This document shows, piece by piece, positions 421-23,158 of a stretch of DNA of 23,158 bases. The translations under genes were made by a program, and so were the position numbers. Source of the DNA: Microbotryum violaceum (taxonomy: Eukaryota); NCBI GenBank assembly GCA_001244265.2, contig CDLV01000005.1:3038001-3061158 (forward strand), read 5' to 3'. Positions within the stretch are counted from its first letter, which is position 1. Each line of letters opens with the position of its first letter. The notes beneath the pieces were generated by a model. The model was not told where the DNA came from and searched no databases. It worked only from the letters and a program-made list of their open reading frames with translations.

Positions 421-2352
421 CTCTTCCTCGTTTCCAACATATGGACGATGACGACGTTGCTCCTCCTCCTTTCCCGGCTGTCAGTCCATTGGCCGAAGAC
501 GCTGAAGTTGAAGAGGACCCGATCGATCATTGACGCGAGGAAGCTGTTGAGGCTATCGGCAGTGACGACGACGACAGCCCTGCGGAACACGATCAACCAT
601 TACCTCCTGAGGATGGTTACGAGTATCGACCTTACCGTGTCGGCCGCAACCCTGGTGCGCTCGAGAACGTCGATGCAGGTAACATTTTACCGACTTGCCT
701 GCGTGCTCAGCATCACACAGGCGCCCTTCGTGTCGTGTCTACTCGCTCGGTCTACCGTCATCCACCAGAGCTCATTGCTATGGTTTCGTCTCGTCACCCC
801 CCGCTTCCCAAGAATTTTGTGGAGGCGATGGCCTCTCCTGAGGCCAAACACTGGATGGCCGCTTCTGAAAAGGAGTTGGGCTCATTCAAATTGCACAAGG
901 TCTTCAAGCTTACGAGGCTACCCACCGGGGCTCGCGCCCTGGGCTATCGTTGGGTGTTCACTCGCAAAGAAGACGCTGAAGGCAATATCATCAGCTACAA
1001 GGCTCGGCTCGTTATCCAAGGCTTCGCTCAACGACTTGGGATCGACTACAACGAGACGTTTGCTCCTGTCTCGTCGATCACGACGATTTTGTTTCTCATT
1101 GCCATCTCTGCCGCTCTCGGACTCGTCCTCGAACAGTTCGACTATGATTCTGCGTTTCTCAACGGGATCATGGAGGAGGATGTCTACATGAAGATTCCTG
1201 AAGGATGGACTGGTGGCTCTCAGCCCGGTCACGCTCTCAAGCTCCTTAAATCTATGTACGGCACCAAGCAGGCTCCTCGGCAATGGAACGCGGCTCTCCA
1301 CAAGCTGATGACGGATCGCGGCTATACGCGCTCCAATGTCGATGCTTGTCTGTACTTCAAGTATCATGGCAAGTCGTTCGCAATCATCACTTTGTACGTT
1401 GATGATGGGCTTGCTGCATCGAACAACCAGGCTTTTCTGGACTCCGAGATTTCGGCTTTCGATGCGGTCTACAAGCTCAAGCGACTTGGCCCGGTCAAGA
1501 CGTTCCTCGGTCTCGAGTTTATTCGTACCAAGGATTTCATCTTTGTCCACCAGTCTAAGTACATTAGAGGCTTACTCGAGCACTACACGTTCGAAAGCAA
1601 GTCGAAGAAGCCGGTCGCGACTCCAATGGAGGATCGCGTCGTTTCGTCTTCTACTGCTCCGTTCGCCGACATTCTCGTTTATCAATCGGCTGTGGGAGCG
1701 CTTCAATATGCTGCGCAACGTGTTCGTCCCGATATCGCGACTGCTGTTCGTGCGGTGGCGAAGTGCGTGGCTGCTCCAACCGAAGGAGACTGGATCTGCG
1801 TCAAGCGAATCTTTCGCTATCTTTCTGACACCGTCGACTATGGGCTACTCTACCGCGTAGGCGGTTCTACCAAATTCGAGGTGTACAGTGACGCGTCGTT
1901 TGGTTGCGATCACGACAACGGAAGATCTGTGGGAGCGTATGTCGTCATTATGGCTGGCGCTGCCATTTCCTGGAAGTCGAAGCAACAAACGATGGTCGCT
2001 TCTTCTACAGCAGAGTCTGAGACTCTGGCTGCTTCAACCGCAGCAAAGGAGGCTATCGGTCTTCGCAACCTGGCGTCCGAACTTCGCATCAATCAAGGTC
2101 AATCTACTGTTCTGCACAAGGACAACCAACCTTGCATCGATTTGGCGAAGAATCCCGGAGCTCGAGGTCGTACACGCCATTGGAATGTGCATCATTTCTA
2201 TCTACGCGAACGAATCGAGGTTGGCGATATCGATCTCCGCTACTGTCCGACCAATCTGAACACGGCCGACATTTTCACGAAACCCCTGCCCAAACTCAAG
2301 TTCGCTACGCATCGCGAGGGACTCGGGATGGTCTCGCTGGCTACCTTGGCAT

Positions 2353-2359
2353 GGGGGAG
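2353..2359 (+). other. Polypurine tract (plus-strand primer) of the copia element
   Basis: GGGGGAG directly followed by TGTCG at the end of RNase H, the typical copia PPT/LTR junction. Confidence 0.8.
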
Positions 2360-2705
2360 TGTCGTTTGATATGTGTCTGTGCCTGTGGTATCTGCGCGGA
2401 TGCGCGTGCGTTTAGTCATTAGTCACTTTGGTATTGTAGTTTGATCTGTTTAAGTTCGGGAGCGCGCGGGGCTTTCTTCCAGCGCGGCTGTTTACTCTTG
2501 ATAGCTTTCTCATCACTCGCTCTACATTGTGGTCCTGACTTCTCGGCGTCGTGCACCCTCACCTATCGGAAGGTTAGTTACTGGAATACTTATGATCACT
2601 CGCTCTACATTGTGGTCCTGACTTCTCGGCGTCGTGCACCCTCACCTATCGGAAGGCTTTACTTCCGCGCTCGCATCTTTTCTGCGTTAAAGGCATTGAA
2701 CGACG
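2360..2705 (+). repeat. 3' LTR (start well supported, end uncertain: CA at 2674-2675 or about 2705)
   Basis: Begins with TG right after the PPT. TTGAACGACG (2696-2705) is a 7/10 inverted match to the LTR start TGTCGTTTGA. There is no 5' LTR in the window to confirm the end. Confidence 0.6.
2512..2656 (+). repeat. Perfect 62-bp direct repeat inside the LTR (2512-2573 and 2595-2656, 21-bp spacer)
   Basis: ATCACTCGCTCTACATTGTGGTCCTGACTTCTCGGCGTCGTGCACCCTCACCTATCGGAAGG occurs twice, 83 bp apart. Confidence 0.95.
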
Positions 2706-11088: not shown

Positions 11089-12546
11089 CCTCCCGAAATT
11101 CAGGCCATTTTGGGGTGATCTTCGGTAACTTGGCAAGTAGGCGCATCCCAAAGTGAAGGACTCTATTTGTTGTAAAAATGACATACCCCAAGTGGCGAGA
11201 GCTTTCGTAAGCTGTGGGTGGAGCTGCAGCGATCCGACGTCTGCGATTTTGGTCGATCCGGTCTCAGATGGTCCGGGCGCATCGTGTACGTGGCGCTGAT
11301 GATCGATGATGGGCGAGCCTGCTCCTTTCGGCTTGCTCTCTTTCCGCACGCTTCGCTATTCTCCTCTTTCCACGATCATCCGTCGGCCACGTTAAGCGCG
11401 ACAATATCTGAAACCGAAAATGACCCGAACAAGCAGACGCCATACCTCATCAACTCGCCAGAACAATCGCCGCGAGGCGGATCTATTCGCTGAATATTCT
11501 ACTAACCGCGATCCCTCGCTATGTCAATACCTGTCGTGGTACTTCAGCCCATAGCACATCCACACGATTTGAAGGCGTTCCACAACAGCAACTGGTTCAG
11601 CCTCAAGCGTGTACTTGATCTCATTCTACAACTTGCATGCGAGCACTGCATGGCGCACTGGCAGTCAAGAAGCCGAGTCAATCACTGCCATCGCCGAGCC
11701 TGCTCGGTTTTTTCAGAGACAGAACACGCAGATACACTCTGGGGATACTTGAATGTGATGAAGGAACTTCAATGCTCGTCGAGTCACTCCGCAAAAATCG
11801 CTACCCTTTTAGAAAGCTCTGCCATGGGCTGGGCTCTGTGATTAGCGTTGAAGTTCCTTCATCGATCGCATTCAAGTATCCGTAGAGAATCTGCGTATTC
11901 TGTCTCTGAAAGATCAAGCATGCTCGGCGATCCAGTCATTGATTCGGCTGCTTGACTCTGCGCCATCCTCACGTGCAAGTCGTAGAATCAGATCAAGCAC
12001 ACGCTTGAGGCTGGACCAGGTGCTGTTGAACAGCTTTGGTCGGTGTGTTTGAACGCCTTCAAAGCGTGTGGAAGGGCTGAAGTACCACGACAGGTATTGA
12101 AACAGCGAAAGATCGCGGTTAGTAGAATATTCAGCGAATAGATCCGCCTCGCGGCGATTGTTCTGGCGAGTTGATGAGGTATGGCGTCTGCTTGTTCGGG
12201 TCATTTTTGGTTTTAAATATTGTCGCGCTTGAGGTGGACGACGGTGATCGTGAAAAGAGAAGAACAGCGAAGCGTACGCAAGGAGATCAAGCCGAACGGA
12301 GCAGGCTCGCCGATGACTATGAGAGCGCCACGTACACGATGCGCTCGGGCCATCTGAGGCGCGATCGACCGAAATCGCAGACTTTGGATCGCTGCAGCTC
12401 CACCCACAGCTTATGAAAGCTCTCGCCACTTGGGGGTATGTCATTTTTACAACATGAAGGAAAATAAAGTCCTTTGCCTTTGCATGGATGCGCCTACTTT
12501 CCAAGTTACAGAGAACCACCCCAAAATGGCCCTGAAATTTCGGAGG
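11089..12546. repeat. Large imperfect inverted repeat (foldback): arms ~11089-11776 and ~11844-12546, 67-bp spacer
   Basis: The arms match as reverse complements along their length. Examples: CCCCAAGTGGCGAGAGCTTTCGTAAGCTGTGGGTGGAGCTGCAGCGATCC vs GGATCGCTGCAGCTCCACCCACAGCTTATGAAAGCTCTCGCCACTTGGGG; inner ends GATGAAGGAACTTCAATGCT vs AGCGTTGAAGTTCCTTCATC. Confidence 0.95.
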
Positions 12547-14220: not shown

Positions 14221-15836
14221 CTAACACAACCCCTCCAAATCACCCCTCTTCTCAACCCTCCCACCCCTCTTCACCTTACACCCCTTAACCCACTCCAATC
14301 CCTCTCCCGCATAACTAACCAAAGCACTCAATTCAACTTGAACCCCTTCATCAACCTCCGCTCCAGCTTCAATCAACCATCGTCGATGTTCATTCAATAA
14401 ATCGCGTCGAGAAGTAAAAGGATCATCGTTTCCGGTTCCAGGAGCGTTTTTCAAAGGGGAGAAGTCTGTCGTACGTGAAACTTGAAGAAGAGCAAAAGAA
14501 GTTGGTTCGACGAAGGGGAAAACGTCAAAGATGAATAATTCGAGTTTGATACCGTTCGGTGTGGTTGGTTTGATCAGATTGCCAGATGGGATTGAAATGT
14601 GAGGGATTTTTTTGGTCGCGATGTGGTAGGTTAATTGGTCAGAGAAGGTACGGATTGAGGTGAGGAAATCGAGTGAGTAGAAATGGTTCGCAATGTTGGC
14701 GGCGCGGTAGGCTAAATCCCCTTTATCGTCGCGTAATTCGGAGAGGGAGGTGGGTAGTTCGGAGTATTCGATAACGGTGTAACGATTGTTTTTGAGAGCC
14801 ACGACGCCGACGGATTCGGTTGGTTGAGTTTTGGTCACTACTTTGGCGCCGCAGGAGGCGTTCTGGGAAATGCAGTAGCCGAGAAAGGTCGGGTCGCTGA
14901 CTCGAACGAGGCAGTTGTCGACACAGTAGGCGTGTAGGTACTTGATGCCTCGGGCTTGAAGATCCGAGAGAACTGTAGTCGAGAAGGTGGAAGAGAGAGG
15001 AGAGTCGAGAGCAGAGTAGAGACCACCGTTGCCGTCCGGTGCGACCGCGACCGAGGACGGGGTGTCGAGTAGGATCTTGCCGTCGTTCGAGAGGCAGGGC
15101 AACACACCTGTGAAAATGTCTCTCAGACGCGCTTAGCATGCCTGATTGGTTATCGTACTTGACCTCAACGGTCAACCTGAGACGCACCCTGCTCAAAAAA
15201 GACGACCTGTCCTTCCTCCAATCCAAAGTAACGATTCTCCCTGAAAAACTGCTCCGTCGGTCCCCTCGTCGGACCACTCGTCATAATATACCACACCAAA
15301 TTCTTCCCCTCTCCAACTCCTTCTCCACCACCAGCTTCTTGAGCTACGATTTGCAACCTCTTGATCCTTTCGGCTTGTAATTGGAACAAACTCTTGTGAG
15401 AAGGGAGACCAATGTCGTAACAACCTTTCGGGGCTGAACTACCTAGACGGGTACCTTGCCCTCCGGCGAGGAGGAGGATCGCTACTTGGCCGAGACGGAT
15501 CGAGGAGAGACCCTGGGAGGTCCAATTTTGTACTTGGGGTGAGTTGGACGAGTCGGGAGTGATGACGCCGACGCGGTCTCGGGGTGGAGGGGAGAAGGTA
15601 ATACTCTCGCTTTCGCTTTCGCTCGGGGAAGAGGAAGAGGAAGAAGAGGCGTCCACCTCGCGTGCTTTGGCGTAGATGCGATTCACACGCTCTGGATCGA
15701 TCGTGGAGAGTTGGGAGAGGAGGGAGTCTTGTTGAGTCGGGCTGAGAGTGTCGTAAAAGTGGAGAACGTGCGATTGATTCGCGGCGGCGTAGCGCGCTCG
15801 GATCGAGTCTAGCGTCGCAGTGGAGGGGGATGACAT
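14221..15836 (-). CDS. UAP1: UDP-N-acetylglucosamine pyrophosphorylase, about 511 aa; exons 15836-15188, 15107-14221
   Basis: Motifs LLAGGQGTRLGSSAPKGCYDIGLPSHKSLFQLQAERI, WYIMTS, FFEQGVLPC, APDGNGGLY, YCVDN, IEYSEL, ANIANH, NGIKLELFIFDVFPF, FSPLKNA and SYAGEGLE. One GTGCGT..CACAG intron. Confidence 0.96.
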
Positions 15837-16375
15837 GGTGCGTCTAGTCTGTGCGAGAAAGAGCATAGGTCTGGAATGAGCACATGCGTCATGGTGAGTT
15901 GACTGTACGACGTCGCACCGTCGTCGCCCGCTCCGAGTCGAAGGGGGGGCGACGCGTCACTTTCGGTAACAGTCGACTCACGGGAGATTCGAGGTACTCG
16001 CAAGTTGAAGAGCCCGAACAAGTAAGCGAGCGAGATGGGGGAAAGAAGCCAAGAACGGCGTGCGGCGTGCTCAGTTCGCGCTCCGGACTGCGGACGATCC
16101 GATGACCCCCGATCCGATCCGATGATCGTCGCACGCCTGTCACTCGTGTCTCGGTCTGTCAAACCTTTTCAAGCGCTTCCGTAGGGCTTCCATTCATGAA
16201 TTCATCTCTCTTTACTTTCAGTCTATGTACAGATATCGAATCAAAGTCTTACATTCACAGTGAAGCCGACTACCCACCGATCGCTCCGAGTCGAACACGA
16301 ACGAATCTTCACCCAAACGCGCAACCTCTCTCTAAATCTAACCCCCTAACCCCCCTTGCGACGAACATCCTACTC

Positions 16376-19637: not shown

Positions 19638-19897
19638 GCTTTGGTGAGGGATGGGATGGGATTGGGGACGAAGGATTTATTGTATTTACATGAAATATAC
19701 GGGCAATTGGAGGGGAGAACTATTCGTTGTTTGAAACGACAGGGCCGCCGTCCCTTCGCTTCATGCCGATGACTCGGAGGAAGACCCCGGTCAGGGAGTT
19801 CGATCGCGACGGGGAAACACGACAACTCATCTACATGCATCGTTTGAAGGTGGGGGGGAAACGGTCGCAGACGAAGGTGTGCCCCACTTGGTTGGGC

Positions 19898-19988
19898 AGT
19901 ATATACGTATCATAGGTGGGGTACAGGCCAATTCCGGGATACGTTTTGGAATAGAACCCCAAATTCCCAGTGAAAATGAAAATTGACA
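19898..19988. repeat. Leader/terminal segment of the array module, copy 1 (91 bp)
   Basis: AGTATATACGTATCATAGGTGGGGTACAGGCC...GAAAATTGACA is identical to 22700-22789 except for one extra C. The flanks to the left of the two copies are unrelated. Confidence 0.92.
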
Positions 19989-21102
19989 GTGCACGGTCAA
20001 TTGCTCGTGCACTGCTGAAATCCACTTTTTCGACTCTGAAGGGCGGCACAAGTCAAAAACCGTCAAATCGAGGTGCACGGTCGATTGCTCGTGCACTGCT
20101 GAAATCCACTTTTTTGGCAAAACCGTCAAATCGAGGTGCACGGTCAATTGCTCGTGCACTGCTGAAATCCACTTTTTCGACTCTGAAGGGCGGCACAAGC
20201 CAAAAACCGTCAAATCGAGGTGCACGGTCAATTGCTCGTGCACTGCTGAAATCCACTTTTCGACTCTGAAGGGCGGCACAAGTCAAAAACCGTCAAATCG
20301 AGGTGCACGGTCGATTGCTCGTGCACTGCTGAAATCCACTTTTTTGGCAAAACCGTCAGATCGAGGTGCACGGTCGATTGCTCGTGCACTGCTGAAATCC
20401 ACTTTTCGACTCTGAAGGGCGGCACAAGCCAAAAACCGTCAAATCGAGGTGCACGGTCAATTGCTCGTGCACTGCTGAAATCCACTTTTTCGACTCTGAA
20501 GGGCGGCACAAGTCAAAAACCGTCAAATCGAGGTGCACGGTCGATTGCTCGTGCACTGCTAAAATCCACTTTTTCGACTCTGAAGGGCGGCACAAGCCAA
20601 AAACCGTCTAATCGAGGTGCACGGTCGATTGCTCGTGCACTGCTGAAATCCACTTTTTTGGCAAAACCGTCAAATCGAGGTGCACGGTCGATTGCTCGTG
20701 CACTGCTGAAATCCACTTTTTCGACTCTGAAGGGCGGCACAAGTCAAAAACCGTCAAATCGAGGTGCACGGTCGATTGCTCGTGCACTGCTGAAATCCAC
20801 TTTTTTGGCAAAACCGTCAAATCGAGGTGCACGGTCGATTGCTCGTGCACTGCTGAAATCCACTTTTTCGACTCTGAAGGGCGGCACAAGCCAAAAACCG
20901 TCAAATCGAGGTGCACGGTCAATTCCCCGTGCACTGCTGAAATCCACTTTTTCGACTGTGAAGGGCGGAACAGGTCGAAAACCGTCAAATCGAGGTGCAC
21001 GGGAAATTCCTCGTGCACTGCTGAAATCCACTTTTTCGACTCTGAAGGCCCCAACAAGGCGAAAACCGTCAAATCGAGGTGCACGGGGAATTCCTCGGGC
21101 AT
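19989..21102. repeat. Tandem array 1: 15 palindrome-bearing units with periods of 84/83 and 63 bp
   Basis: GTGCACG-N10-CGTGCAC starts at 19989, 20073, 20136, 20220, 20303, 20366, 20449, 20533, 20617, 20680, 20764, 20827, 20911, 20995 and 21079 (last copy degenerate). Spacings: 84,63,84,83,63,83,84,84,63,84,63,84,84,84. Confidence 0.97.
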
Positions 21103-21177
21103 TGCGAGATGGCAGTGCAGCGTGAAACTTTGTGCACCGAGTAACCCTGAGCCCAGAGCGCTGAACCGGGATTGGAT

Positions 21178-21199
21178 CCGAAATGGGTTTCCATTTCGG
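21178..21199. other. Perfect 9-bp-stem hairpin CCGAAATGG-GTTT-CCATTTCGG
   Basis: Seen directly, about 75 bp after the last array unit and 14 nt before a CTAG (21214-21217). Confidence 0.7.
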
Positions 21200-21780
21200 G
21201 CTTCGGCGTGGCGCTAGAGCTGAGACACGGCAGACTTGAGGACTTGTAGACGTTGATAAGTTTATCGCAACTCTGTCACGATCACAGCTGGCTTGTATAC
21301 GCTTCATTTGTGCTATTCTGCGTTGTTTTTTCAGTATACTCAATTACACTAGTCGTTGTGGCCTTGACGACTTTGGAGCGCCCGCGCGGTCCACTGCTTC
21401 TTGTCCTCGGCCCAGAACAAATGTACGGACATGTCCGTCTACTTGCTTTTAGGTACACAAGTTGAACAATTGTATGAGTAGACCCACTTTGAATCTGCAA
21501 GGAGAACATGATAGCATGGGTATTTTAGTACTCTTGAGCTTCGAAACTGTCATGTGCGTACCGCAACCCATGTCCGTCCACTTGTCGGTCGCGGGTGCGG
21601 ACACGGCGGTCTTGCGGGACGGACAATGAGTGAGGCTGCCGCCAACAACGCCGCGGTCGCGCGACCACTGGCGTGAGTGTGGGAAAGACGCGCGAGACCA
21701 CGGCGCATGGTTTTTGGAGCGCGAGCGGGTAATTACATTACATTAGCTCTTTCACTGGCTTAGACCTTACATTCCACTAA

Positions 21781-22696
21781 TTGACAATGTGTTTCGGTAA
21801 TGGGTCCAAGCTCACCAGCCAAAGTTTTGACGGGATACCCGTCAAAACCACGAGGAATCGTGTCTTCAATCGCATCTCACAAGCTCACACGCACATTTGG
21901 TCATCACAAGAGAACCATATACTTGAGTACACCAACAACATGTTCAGCACCCAAGAATGGCTCGAAAGCGACGTGGTGAGGGTCTGTGAAGTTGGCCCAC
22001 GTTTCAGGTCCATGTTCCAGGCCCACGTTCCCAGCCTTGATGTCGTCGTGGGGGAAAACATAGACGGCCTAGCCATCACGAACAATGACGATGACGGTGA
22101 CATTTACTTGGCCCGGAACCGAACTCGGATCCTGACCCGCGCCCGGACCTCTACTTGTGCTCGCGTTCGCCTTCAGACGCCTCGACCGGTTACGTCTCTG
22201 ACTGCGATGACTACCTCGGATGTCCACGTCACATGCTTTCACATCGTTCACATGCGTCATGCAATCTGCGAGATGCAACTCGATCTCTCCCAACTGCAGC
22301 TCGACGTGTCACCTGGACCCGACTCTGATGCGCGCACGGTGCGACGTCGCACAACACGGTTAATGACATGTCCAACATTGCCATCATCAACACCGTACAA
22401 CTGAAACTGCACCCTGAGAGGGCGTGGTCACTTTCAGCAGCGTCCAAGCACACGTCGATGCTTCGCTCGAGCGTTCTCGGTCGTACACGTGCCCGGTCAG
22501 CGCATCGCCTCGTTCACCCCGGTCGCCCTCTCGCTGCTCGACCGATGAATGTGGTGAGCTCTTCATTCAGATCGTACCAAGCTCTCACCTTCTTCGCTCA
22601 CCTCATGCCTGTCTTTGCTACTTATCACTCTAGTTCAGATCGCGCGTTGGCCGACTCGCTGGCATCCGAGCTTCGCACCGAACCGCTCTGTGACTT
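21781..22696 (+). pseudogene. Decayed intron-containing gene of unknown function (possible TE cargo), interrupted by the second array module
   Basis: A candidate intron 22097-22176 (GTGACA..CCTGAC..CTTCAG) joins ORF 21781 in frame to the frame of ORF 22368-22700, leaving one TGA (22326-22328). A second possible intron is 22496-22570. The frame ends at a GTAAGT-like donor overlapping the leader. No family recognised. Confidence 0.4.
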
Positions 22697-22699
22697 GTA

Positions 22700-22789
22700 A
22701 GTATATACGTATCATAGGTGGGGTACAGGCCAATTCCGGGATACGTTTTGGAATAGAACCCAAATTCCCAGTGAAAATGAAAATTGACA
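22700..22789. repeat. Leader/terminal segment of the array module, copy 2 (90 bp)
   Basis: Direct copy of 19898-19988. Confidence 0.92.
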
Positions 22790-23158
22790 GTGCACGGTCA
22801 ATTGCTCGTGCACTGTTAAAATCCACTTTTTCGACTCTGAAGGGCGGCACAAGCCAAAAACCGTCAAATCGAGGTGCACGGTCAATTGCTCGTGCACTGC
22901 TGAAATCCACTTTTTTGGCAAAACCGTCAAATCGAGGTGCACGGTCAATTGCTCGTGCACTGCTGAAATCCACTTTTTCGACTCTGAAGGGCGGCACAAG
23001 CCAAAAACCGTCAAATCGAGGTGCACGGTCAATTGCTCGTGCACTGCTGAAATCCACTTTTCGACTCTGAAGGGCGGCACAAGTCAAAAACCGTCAAATC
23101 GAGGTGCACGGTCGATTGCTCGTGCACTGCTGAAATCCACTTTTTTGGCAAAACGTCA
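22790..23158. repeat. Tandem array 2 (runs off the window end)
   Basis: Palindromes at 22790, 22874, 22937, 23021 and 23104. Spacings 84,63,84,83 followed by a short-type unit, the same order as the start of array 1. Confidence 0.97.

Follow-up and report, generated by a model that had tools for sequence, protein, structure and literature searches.

The window analysed here, a 23,158-nt stretch of contig CDLV01000005.1 of Microbotryum violaceum, ends in two copies of a repeat module, termed E, in which a leader is followed by an array of short palindrome-bearing units. The exact leader string AGTATATACGTATCATAGG occurred twice in the 23158 bases of the window, at 19898 and at 22700, both times on the plus strand, and it was matched in 0 of 100 shuffled sequences. 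The original prediction had stated that the two copies start at the same base after unrelated flanks and share a leader of about 90 bp, and this was confirmed, the two starts being 2802 bp apart and the sequences 5′ of them unrelated. On the 3′ side the copies could be aligned up to the contig end at 23158. Over these 459-460 nt, copy 1 and copy 2 differed by four substitutions, all of them transitions, and by one single-base indel in the leader; a second indel lies 4 nt from the contig end. Between the copies lies a spacer, termed S, which carries an open reading frame (ORF) of 154 codons. Overall, we propose, with a probability of about 0.5, that the window holds the edge of a cluster of E, a Microbotryum-specific, non-coding and non-autonomous repeat module. 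The coordinates of its parts are presented in Table 1.

Table 1. Parts of the two E copies and of the spacer between them, in window coordinates.
Feature	Coordinates	Strand	Description
Leader, copy 1	19898..19988	+	sharp 5′ end AGTATATACGTAT; minus strand encodes ..ALSIFIFTGNLGFYSKTYPGIGLYPTYDTYIL
Homogeneous part, array 1	19989..20910	+	11 units of 84, 83 or 63 bp with a palindrome in each
Degenerate distal units, array 1	20911..21105	+	two 84-bp units and one partial unit; palindrome cores GGTCAATTCCCC, GGGAAATTCCTC, GGGGAATTCCTC
Module tail	21106..21199	+	closes with the hairpin CCGAAATGG-gttt-CCATTTCGG at 21178-21199; candidate right end
Spacer S	21200..22699	+	separate repeat, mosaic with 85-94% paralogs; 154-codon ORF at 21940-22401
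Leader, copy 2	22700..22789	+	one C fewer than the copy 1 leader
Array 2	22790..23158	+	unit order as in array 1; truncated by the contig end

When cut from palindrome to palindrome, the first array consists of units of 84, 63, 84, 83, 63, 83, 84, 84, 63, 84, 63, 84, 84 and 84 bp, followed by a partial fifteenth unit. The second array begins with units of 84, 63, 84 and 83 bp and breaks off within a 63-type unit, copy 2 being represented in the window by 459 bp only before the contig ends. The common unit order claimed for the two arrays, including the 1-bp-shorter unit at the same rank, was therefore observed, the 83-bp unit standing fourth in both. The palindrome GTGCACG-N10-CGTGCAC gave 19 matches in the window at up to three mismatches, against 0 expected. 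Tandem Repeats Finder (TRF) returned periods of 63, 83/84, 146/147 and 231 bp, the 147-bp period arising from pairs of 84- and 63-bp units. The copy 1 leader contains a 7-bp inverted repeat (ACGTATC..GATACGT), and its final 20 nt or so are a degenerate partial unit. Across the array units four of the six reading frames are open, which is unremarkable. The cores of the distal units at 20911-21105 (GGGGAATTCCTC and similar) are nearer to a perfect 24-bp palindrome than the core of the main units, GGTCAATTGCTC, and a perfect palindrome may have been the ancestor of the array, whose older units would then stand furthest from the leader.

The module was also found outside the window. A protein search with the minus-strand frame over array and leader matched ten annotated proteins, all of them from M. 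silenes-dioicae and on ten contigs, and the protein clusters of these matches added five models, which gives 15 array gene models on 13 contigs of this species. The leader peptide is read through in 12 of the 15 models and then passes into about ten different continuations. The match to the models stops at the same terminal base as the leader of the window (codons Y-I-L = TATATACT). In the model P0121 the continuation is identical at 22 of 22 residues to window 19899-19834, and the copy 1 site is therefore orthologous in M. silenes-dioicae. In comparison with the window at 19897/19898, the P0121 junction has six extra bases (codons N-L) placed exactly between the flank and the leader end. P0126, whose site is a different one, has the N-L codons too, and the junction of P0142 is 12 bases longer than that of P0124; the junctions are heterogeneous. 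In P0141 the flank of the leader is a degenerate array unit, and P0142 has two leaders 24 codons apart; module copies thus appear often to lie inside or next to other copies. Two readings of such flanks were given up: the P0141 flank as a spacer end, implying an E-S-E arrangement elsewhere, was rejected when tblastn led to a degenerate array unit, and the P0125 and P0140 flanks as a retroelement polymerase were dropped, no such Pfam match being found. No array translations were found in the proteomes of M. saponariae and M. intermedium, which are held in the same protein database as that of M. silenes-dioicae, and the unit palindrome, exact or degenerate, gave 0 loci in two metagenome-contig scans.

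Contigs from four (X1, X9, X11 and X20) of the 20 public runs having the region were compared over 21000-22800, a range outside which the long array and the copy 1 junction lie. Sequences other than that of the window precede 22700/22701 in all four runs (2, 1, 2 and 2 contigs, respectively), and the pooled contigs upstream of this position showed a low mutual agreement, 0.63-0.70; the leader boundary is therefore constant beside other flanks. The depths of the contigs were summed, and in X1 reached 5151 for the leader, 106860 for the array unit and about 170-370 for the spacer, sums that are not copy numbers. Taken as indicative only, these sums place the leader at 5-20 times the depth of the spacer in all four runs, and most leaders are therefore not tied to this spacer. 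Overall, E has spread as one piece, beginning at the same terminal base, to at least about ten sequence contexts, among them other E copies and, in the case of copy 1, unique DNA at a site that M. silenes-dioicae shares. Leader and array had been thought to be copied together, and they do form one unit with a precise end, present at many loci beside unrelated flanks. Confinement of the leader to this one locus, which would have spoken for a local event, is contradicted by the 13 contigs of M. silenes-dioicae and by the other flanks in the four runs.

A form without the leader was observed at the copy 2 site. Each of the runs X1, X9 and X20 has one contig that follows the left flank of copy 2 as far as 22701 and then passes into 30 nt that are identical in the three runs (agreement 1.0), the bases AG at 22700-22701 being compatible with both the leader-bearing and the leader-free forms. 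This common continuation suggests that S extends beyond 22701 and that copy 2 lies inside S. Long contigs with other surroundings, among the records of the public runs, contain pieces of S that are 85-94% identical. The ORF of S is present at eight M. silenes-dioicae loci at 96-99% identity and is intact in the seven full-length models. The claim that copy 2 cuts a decayed gene was consequently abandoned, its left flank being a repeat with an intact reading frame. At seven of the eight loci, the gene number of S directly follows that of an array gene model, which we read as physical adjacency of E and S, assuming that genes are numbered in order along contigs. E is usually followed by S as a companion repeat of 1.5 kb. 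The S ORF belongs to no Pfam family and had no usable Atlas match, and a search among 1.84 billion representatives returned only the ORF itself below an E-value of 1e-10, plus five short fragments at 64-68%. We take it to be either non-coding or specific to the genus. In the M. silenes-dioicae annotation, P0121-P0130 and P0138-P0142 are at least 15 minisatellite translations, and P0131-P0137 are entries of the spacer ORF, of which there are eight in all. The array gene models are most likely annotation artefacts, and the array and spacer-ORF entries together probably inflate the species-specific gene counts as such artefacts.

The far end of the module was conserved as well. P0127, P0128 and P0138, on three other contigs, encode the degenerate units and the tail with an amino-acid identity of 94-97%; these stretches are therefore a fixed part of the module and not the product of local decay. 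The hairpin, with a 9-bp stem and a 4-nt loop, is unique in the window and is present in both the minimum free energy (MFE) and the centroid folds. In 13 of the 15 gene models, it supplies the codons for the initial (M)G(F/N)PFR. Between hairpin and array these 13 models carry two different tail sequences, and the hairpin is therefore the feature that they share. In run X20, a paralog with 86% identity to 21199-21367 has unrelated sequence in front of it, and this one paralog, together with the conservation of the hairpin, makes about 21199 a candidate right end of the module. The loop at 21187-21190 contains TTT in the window and, in reverse complement, AAA with one C in X1 and X9 and likewise in the M. 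silenes-dioicae models (MGFPFR). Such an inversion of the loop between unchanged stem arms is as expected of template switching at a palindrome. A terminal hairpin was thus located at the far end; the original prediction had named subterminal hairpins as a trait of Helitron/Helentron-type elements.

These results establish a genuine multicopy family, shared by at least two species, whose members have a sharply defined head and a conserved tail with a hairpin. In the model that we propose, E would span about 1.3 kb (19898 to about 21199) and comprise a leader of 90 bp whose 5′ end does not vary, a minisatellite of 84/63-bp units that can expand and that has a palindrome of 7-bp arms in each unit, fixed degenerate distal units and a tail of about 95 bp closed by a hairpin with a stem of 9-10 bp. 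Copy 2 would be a second E that landed inside the S following copy 1. An enzyme whose gene lies at another place would mobilise E in trans. Given that E lacks terminal inverted repeats (TIRs) and closes with a hairpin, a single-strand route would be the most likely one, and it may be of the rolling-circle type, like that of the Helitron2/Helentron-derived HINE/DINE elements; these two features make a rolling-circle mechanism a reasonable conjecture. The array would grow and be homogenised at the leader side, via slippage or unequal exchange, and E would form clusters at contig ends, probably in putative centromere regions. We find E best characterised as a satellite-carrying non-autonomous repeat that occurs in clusters, probably within centromere regions.

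Several observations weigh against this model. The 5′ end of E is AG, neither the TC of Helitrons nor the TG of long terminal repeats (LTRs). The bases that precede this constant end vary, being C in copy 1, A in copy 2, and C, C and G in other copies; the 5′ flanks end in GGGC, TGTA, GGAC, ACAAC and AAGGG, and a target TA or TWA is compatible with copy 2 only. In inverted orientation, leader and tail match best over 10 nt with one mismatch (19928-19937 vs 21166-21175), a level that 43 of 300 shuffles reached. The DNA folds of the whole segments were no more stable than those of shuffled sequences (z from -0.07 to -1.16), and no transposase was seen among the ORFs of the window. The putative right end is supported by the single 86%-identical paralog in one run and by the conservation of the hairpin. 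Moreover, some flanks recur on two contigs each (P0125/P0140 and, in part, P0124/P0142), and block (segmental) duplication therefore contributes to the spread. The linkage of E and S at seven of the eight S loci could similarly reflect duplication of an E-S block instead of transposition of E.

The statement that the window lacks a TIR partner, a TG..CA end and a transposase held in our analysis. No inverted partner of the leader end was found in the window at up to three mismatches. The rolling-circle-like terminus that the original prediction had favoured was sustained in part: the hairpin end and the missing TIRs agree with it, whereas the start with AG instead of TC, the ill-fitting bases before the end and the inverted match at chance level do not. 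Two candidate motifs were set aside on the way. A subterminal inverted repeat between leader and tail was dropped, not being above chance, and the 8-mer GACTTGTA, which stands before leader 2 and also at 21241, was given no weight as a target-site duplication (TSD) or end motif, since it occurs four times in the window.

Elsewhere in the window, Pfam matches among the 15 ORFs of at least 123 aa were limited to RVT_2, UDPGP and one weak match to UTP23_sensor. At the other end of the window, an open frame at 534-2366 (+) carries a copia-type reverse transcriptase domain (RVT_2, E 2.5e-59) and represents a retrotransposon fragment. An intron-split UDP-N-acetylglucosamine pyrophosphorylase gene lies at 14224-15956 (-), with 93% identity to the M. 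saponariae protein and 84% to that of M. intermedium; these two were its best relatives and assign the window to an anther-smut fungus of the genus Microbotryum. We also observed a large, foldback-like inverted repeat at 11103-12531, with arms at about 11103-11643 and 11968-12531 that are 87-94% complementary in five collinear pieces, a 36-bp tandem repeat of 3.6 copies at 278-421, and a pair of 67-bp direct repeats with a spacing of 83 bp at 2507-2656.

Among the other explanations, the one that survives best, although we consider it rather unlikely, is a complex (peri)centromeric satellite, in which 84/63-bp blocks alternate with a spacer of about 1.5 kb in a composite period of 2802 bp, spread by unequal exchange, segmental duplication and gene conversion, and which would be the published putative centromere-specific repeat. 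The preceding of S by E at seven of the eight S loci and the end of the window contig inside a second block fit such a satellite. So do the gene numbers, which, on our reading of the numbering and of the lengths of the contigs, agree with contig ends: no more than 17 genes separate C022g09586/7 from C023g09604, with a contig boundary in between, and C046g12283 and C047g12286, on different contigs, differ by three. A 147-bp dimer period and dyad symmetries are compatible with a centromere-type satellite and were counted in its favour. In Table S3 of PMC10078771, blocks of centromeric repeats measure 1.2-3.2 kb and the gaps about 1.57-1.74 kb, with, for instance, blocks of 1331 bp at intervals of 3074 bp and blocks of 1690 bp at intervals of 3258 bp, to which the block of 1208 bp and the gap of 1594 bp in the window can be compared.

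By contrast, about ten unrelated sequences meet the same leader base, among them unique DNA 260 bp downstream of a gene, and the edge of a satellite is not expected to be so exact. The spacer also runs on without the leader in three runs, and the excess of leader over spacer depth in all four runs argues in the same direction. The array translations were found in M. silenes-dioicae and not in M. saponariae or M. intermedium, whereas the published repeats, in the passages of PMC10078771 considered here, have BLAST matches in M. intermedium. The likeness to the putative centromere repeats of Microbotryum, as they are described in those passages, concerns the genus, the abundance of tandem blocks of 1.2-3.2 kb with gaps of about 1.6 kb, and the position at contig ends. 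These descriptions, to which E was compared in words and not by sequence, do not mention a leader, tail and hairpin anatomy or many flanks. Later Microbotryum papers, in the parts that bear on this point, place centromeres by BLAST of the 'centromere-specific repeats' of Badouin et al. 2015, and assemblies often break there. Genes are dense in the window up to 19.6 kb, and a subtelomeric position would look alike in contig end, high depth and gene numbering. In favour of centromere regions, few contigs of the M. silenes-dioicae assembly reach telomeric repeats according to the assembly description in PMC5967549, as far as it was consulted. Whether E is identical to the published centromere repeat, or a member of those regions, we hold to be about evenly balanced.

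The dispersed-module reading was further weighed against a longer element, of which E and S would be the 5′ part, with its body and possibly its gene beyond the contig end, and copy 2 would be a second full element, nested in the first or joined to it head to tail, as happens in rolling-circle elements with their truncated inner copies. This we judge quite improbable. It would account for the linkage of E and S at seven of the eight loci, for the S ORF being open in seven of seven full-length copies, and for the single shared sequence with which S continues past 22701 in other copies; in addition, tandem truncated Helitron copies, including some in plant centromeres, are reported in the relevant sections of PMC5148889 and PMC7492417. 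It is contradicted by the leader depth, far above that of S, by P0141 and P0142, whose leaders have other arrays at a distance of tens of bases on their far side, and by the hairpin common to two tail types, which argues for an end of the module at that point. The S ORF, moreover, has no Pfam family, and its relatives among the 1.84 billion representatives are only short fragments at 64-68%.

Very improbable, in our view, is a retroposon on the minus strand, in which the leader would be the fixed 3′ end where reverse transcription starts and the other end would vary. One invariant end beside an undefined one, the lack of TIRs and the extra stretches at the leader junction (the 6 nt, 'NL', of P0121 vs the window and the 12 nt of P0142 vs P0124) speak for it. 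Against it, no poly(A) or simple-repeat tail was found at the leader end, and neither an Rfam search, at the gathering threshold and at E ≤ 1, nor a tRNA search gave any match (0 in each), so that no tRNA or other RNA family is indicated. The far end is also not variable, given the hairpin start in 13 of the 15 models, and copy 1 has no TSD that was seen, a possible GGC at both sides having been noted by eye. Finally, it is hardly credible that the pair arose merely by duplication on the spot or by misassembly at the contig end: the contig does end in copy 2 with an error-like 1-nt deletion 4 nt from its end, and the junction 22699/22700 is spanned by none of the 32 contig pieces listed and depends on the window's own assembly, but another species has leader, array and tail on 13 contigs, other flanks were seen in four of four runs and the copy 1 site is common to M. 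silenes-dioicae, which largely refutes this explanation for the family as a whole.

The consequences depend on how E relates to the centromere repeats. Microbotryum serves as one of the main models of how non-recombining mating-type chromosomes evolve, and in that work centromeres are inferred only from the 'centromere-specific repeats'. If E is one of those repeats, or sits among them, its anatomy of head, array, hairpin tail and spacer would help to close assembly gaps, the annotation could be cleaned of at least 15 array models and eight spacer-ORF entries in M. silenes-dioicae, and an origin of the centromere repeats of the genus from a mobile element would become testable. If E is only another unclassified non-autonomous element, the finding is an ordinary one. 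A more far-reaching version, which we regard as unlikely, would make E an unclassified, TIR-less, hairpin-ended mobile element of a basidiomycete that moves by a single-strand route, has termini unlike those of the described Helitron groups, and whose 84/63-bp array (147-bp dimer) seeds the centromere satellite blocks of Microbotryum. If true, a transition from transposon to centromere satellite would still be in progress in a fungus.

We compared E, taken as a dispersed module, with the known classes of mobile elements. LTR retrotransposons and solo LTRs have TG..CA ends and a TSD of 4-6 bp; E differs from them by its AG end and by the flank of copy 2, which is unchanged in the leader-free form. 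From the DNA transposons with TIRs and a TSD of fixed length (hAT, Tc1/mariner, PIF, Mutator, CACTA) it differs in that no terminal inverted repeats were found. Canonical Helitron1 elements have a hairpin 10-12 nt upstream of a 3′-CTRR that is followed by a host T, and a 5′-TC after a host A. E differs by its 5′ AG instead of TC and by flanking bases that are not A..T. A CTAG is present at 21214-21217, 14 nt past the hairpin, and is followed by A; the sole evidence for a boundary points to 21198/21199, at the hairpin. The likeness to this group consists of a hairpin near one end, the absence of TIRs and the abundance of Helitrons in the genus Microbotryum, where, in the portion of PMC4469406 that treats M. 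lychnidis-dioicae, they make up 10% of the transposable element (TE) space, unclassified elements making up 42%.

The fungal non-canonical Helitrons FoHeli1-5, of the Helitron2 group, are described in the passages of PMC5148889 considered here as starting with TCAG or TGCCT, carrying asymmetric TIRs (ATIRs) of 12-16 bp, measuring 5-11 kb and encoding Rep-Hel. On this description E resembles them in its fungal host, in termini that are not TC..CTRR, in terminal hairpins, in tandem or near-tandem copies and in assemblies that break at such places; it differs in starting with AGTATATACG and in showing no ATIR and no gene. Of the described groups compared here, the HINE/DINE elements offer the likeness in layout. 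Cg_HINE of the Pacific oyster, a HINE/DINE-type non-autonomous Helentron (Helitron2), carries satellite-like arrays and, in the sections of PMC7492417 that describe it, has tandem repeats at its centre, between a left module and a short right module with a palindrome at its end, without TSD. E has a similar order of parts, with the tandem array (19989-21105) between leader and tail and the terminal hairpin at 21178-21199 as the closing palindrome, and shares with these elements, as so described, the dispersed short arrays with conserved flanks, the absence of TIRs at the extreme ends and copies near each other. The 11-12-bp subterminal inverted repeats of HINE/DINE are not above chance in E, nor were the inverted repeats of about 11-16 bp of the wider Helitron2/Helentron/HINE group or its TT or T-rich target found, the 5′ flanks being neither T-rich nor ending in TT. 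By the same description, E also differs in its left module, which has no microsatellite, in its basidiomycete host and in that no Helentron protein is linked to it. Given the inverted repeats and the target, E is therefore not filed as a HINE member despite its layout. Insects, bivalves and plants are known to have mobile elements with satellite arrays inside them. Our literature search returned no account of such arrays inside mobile elements in fungi, and E would thus add a fungal member to a kind of element already known.

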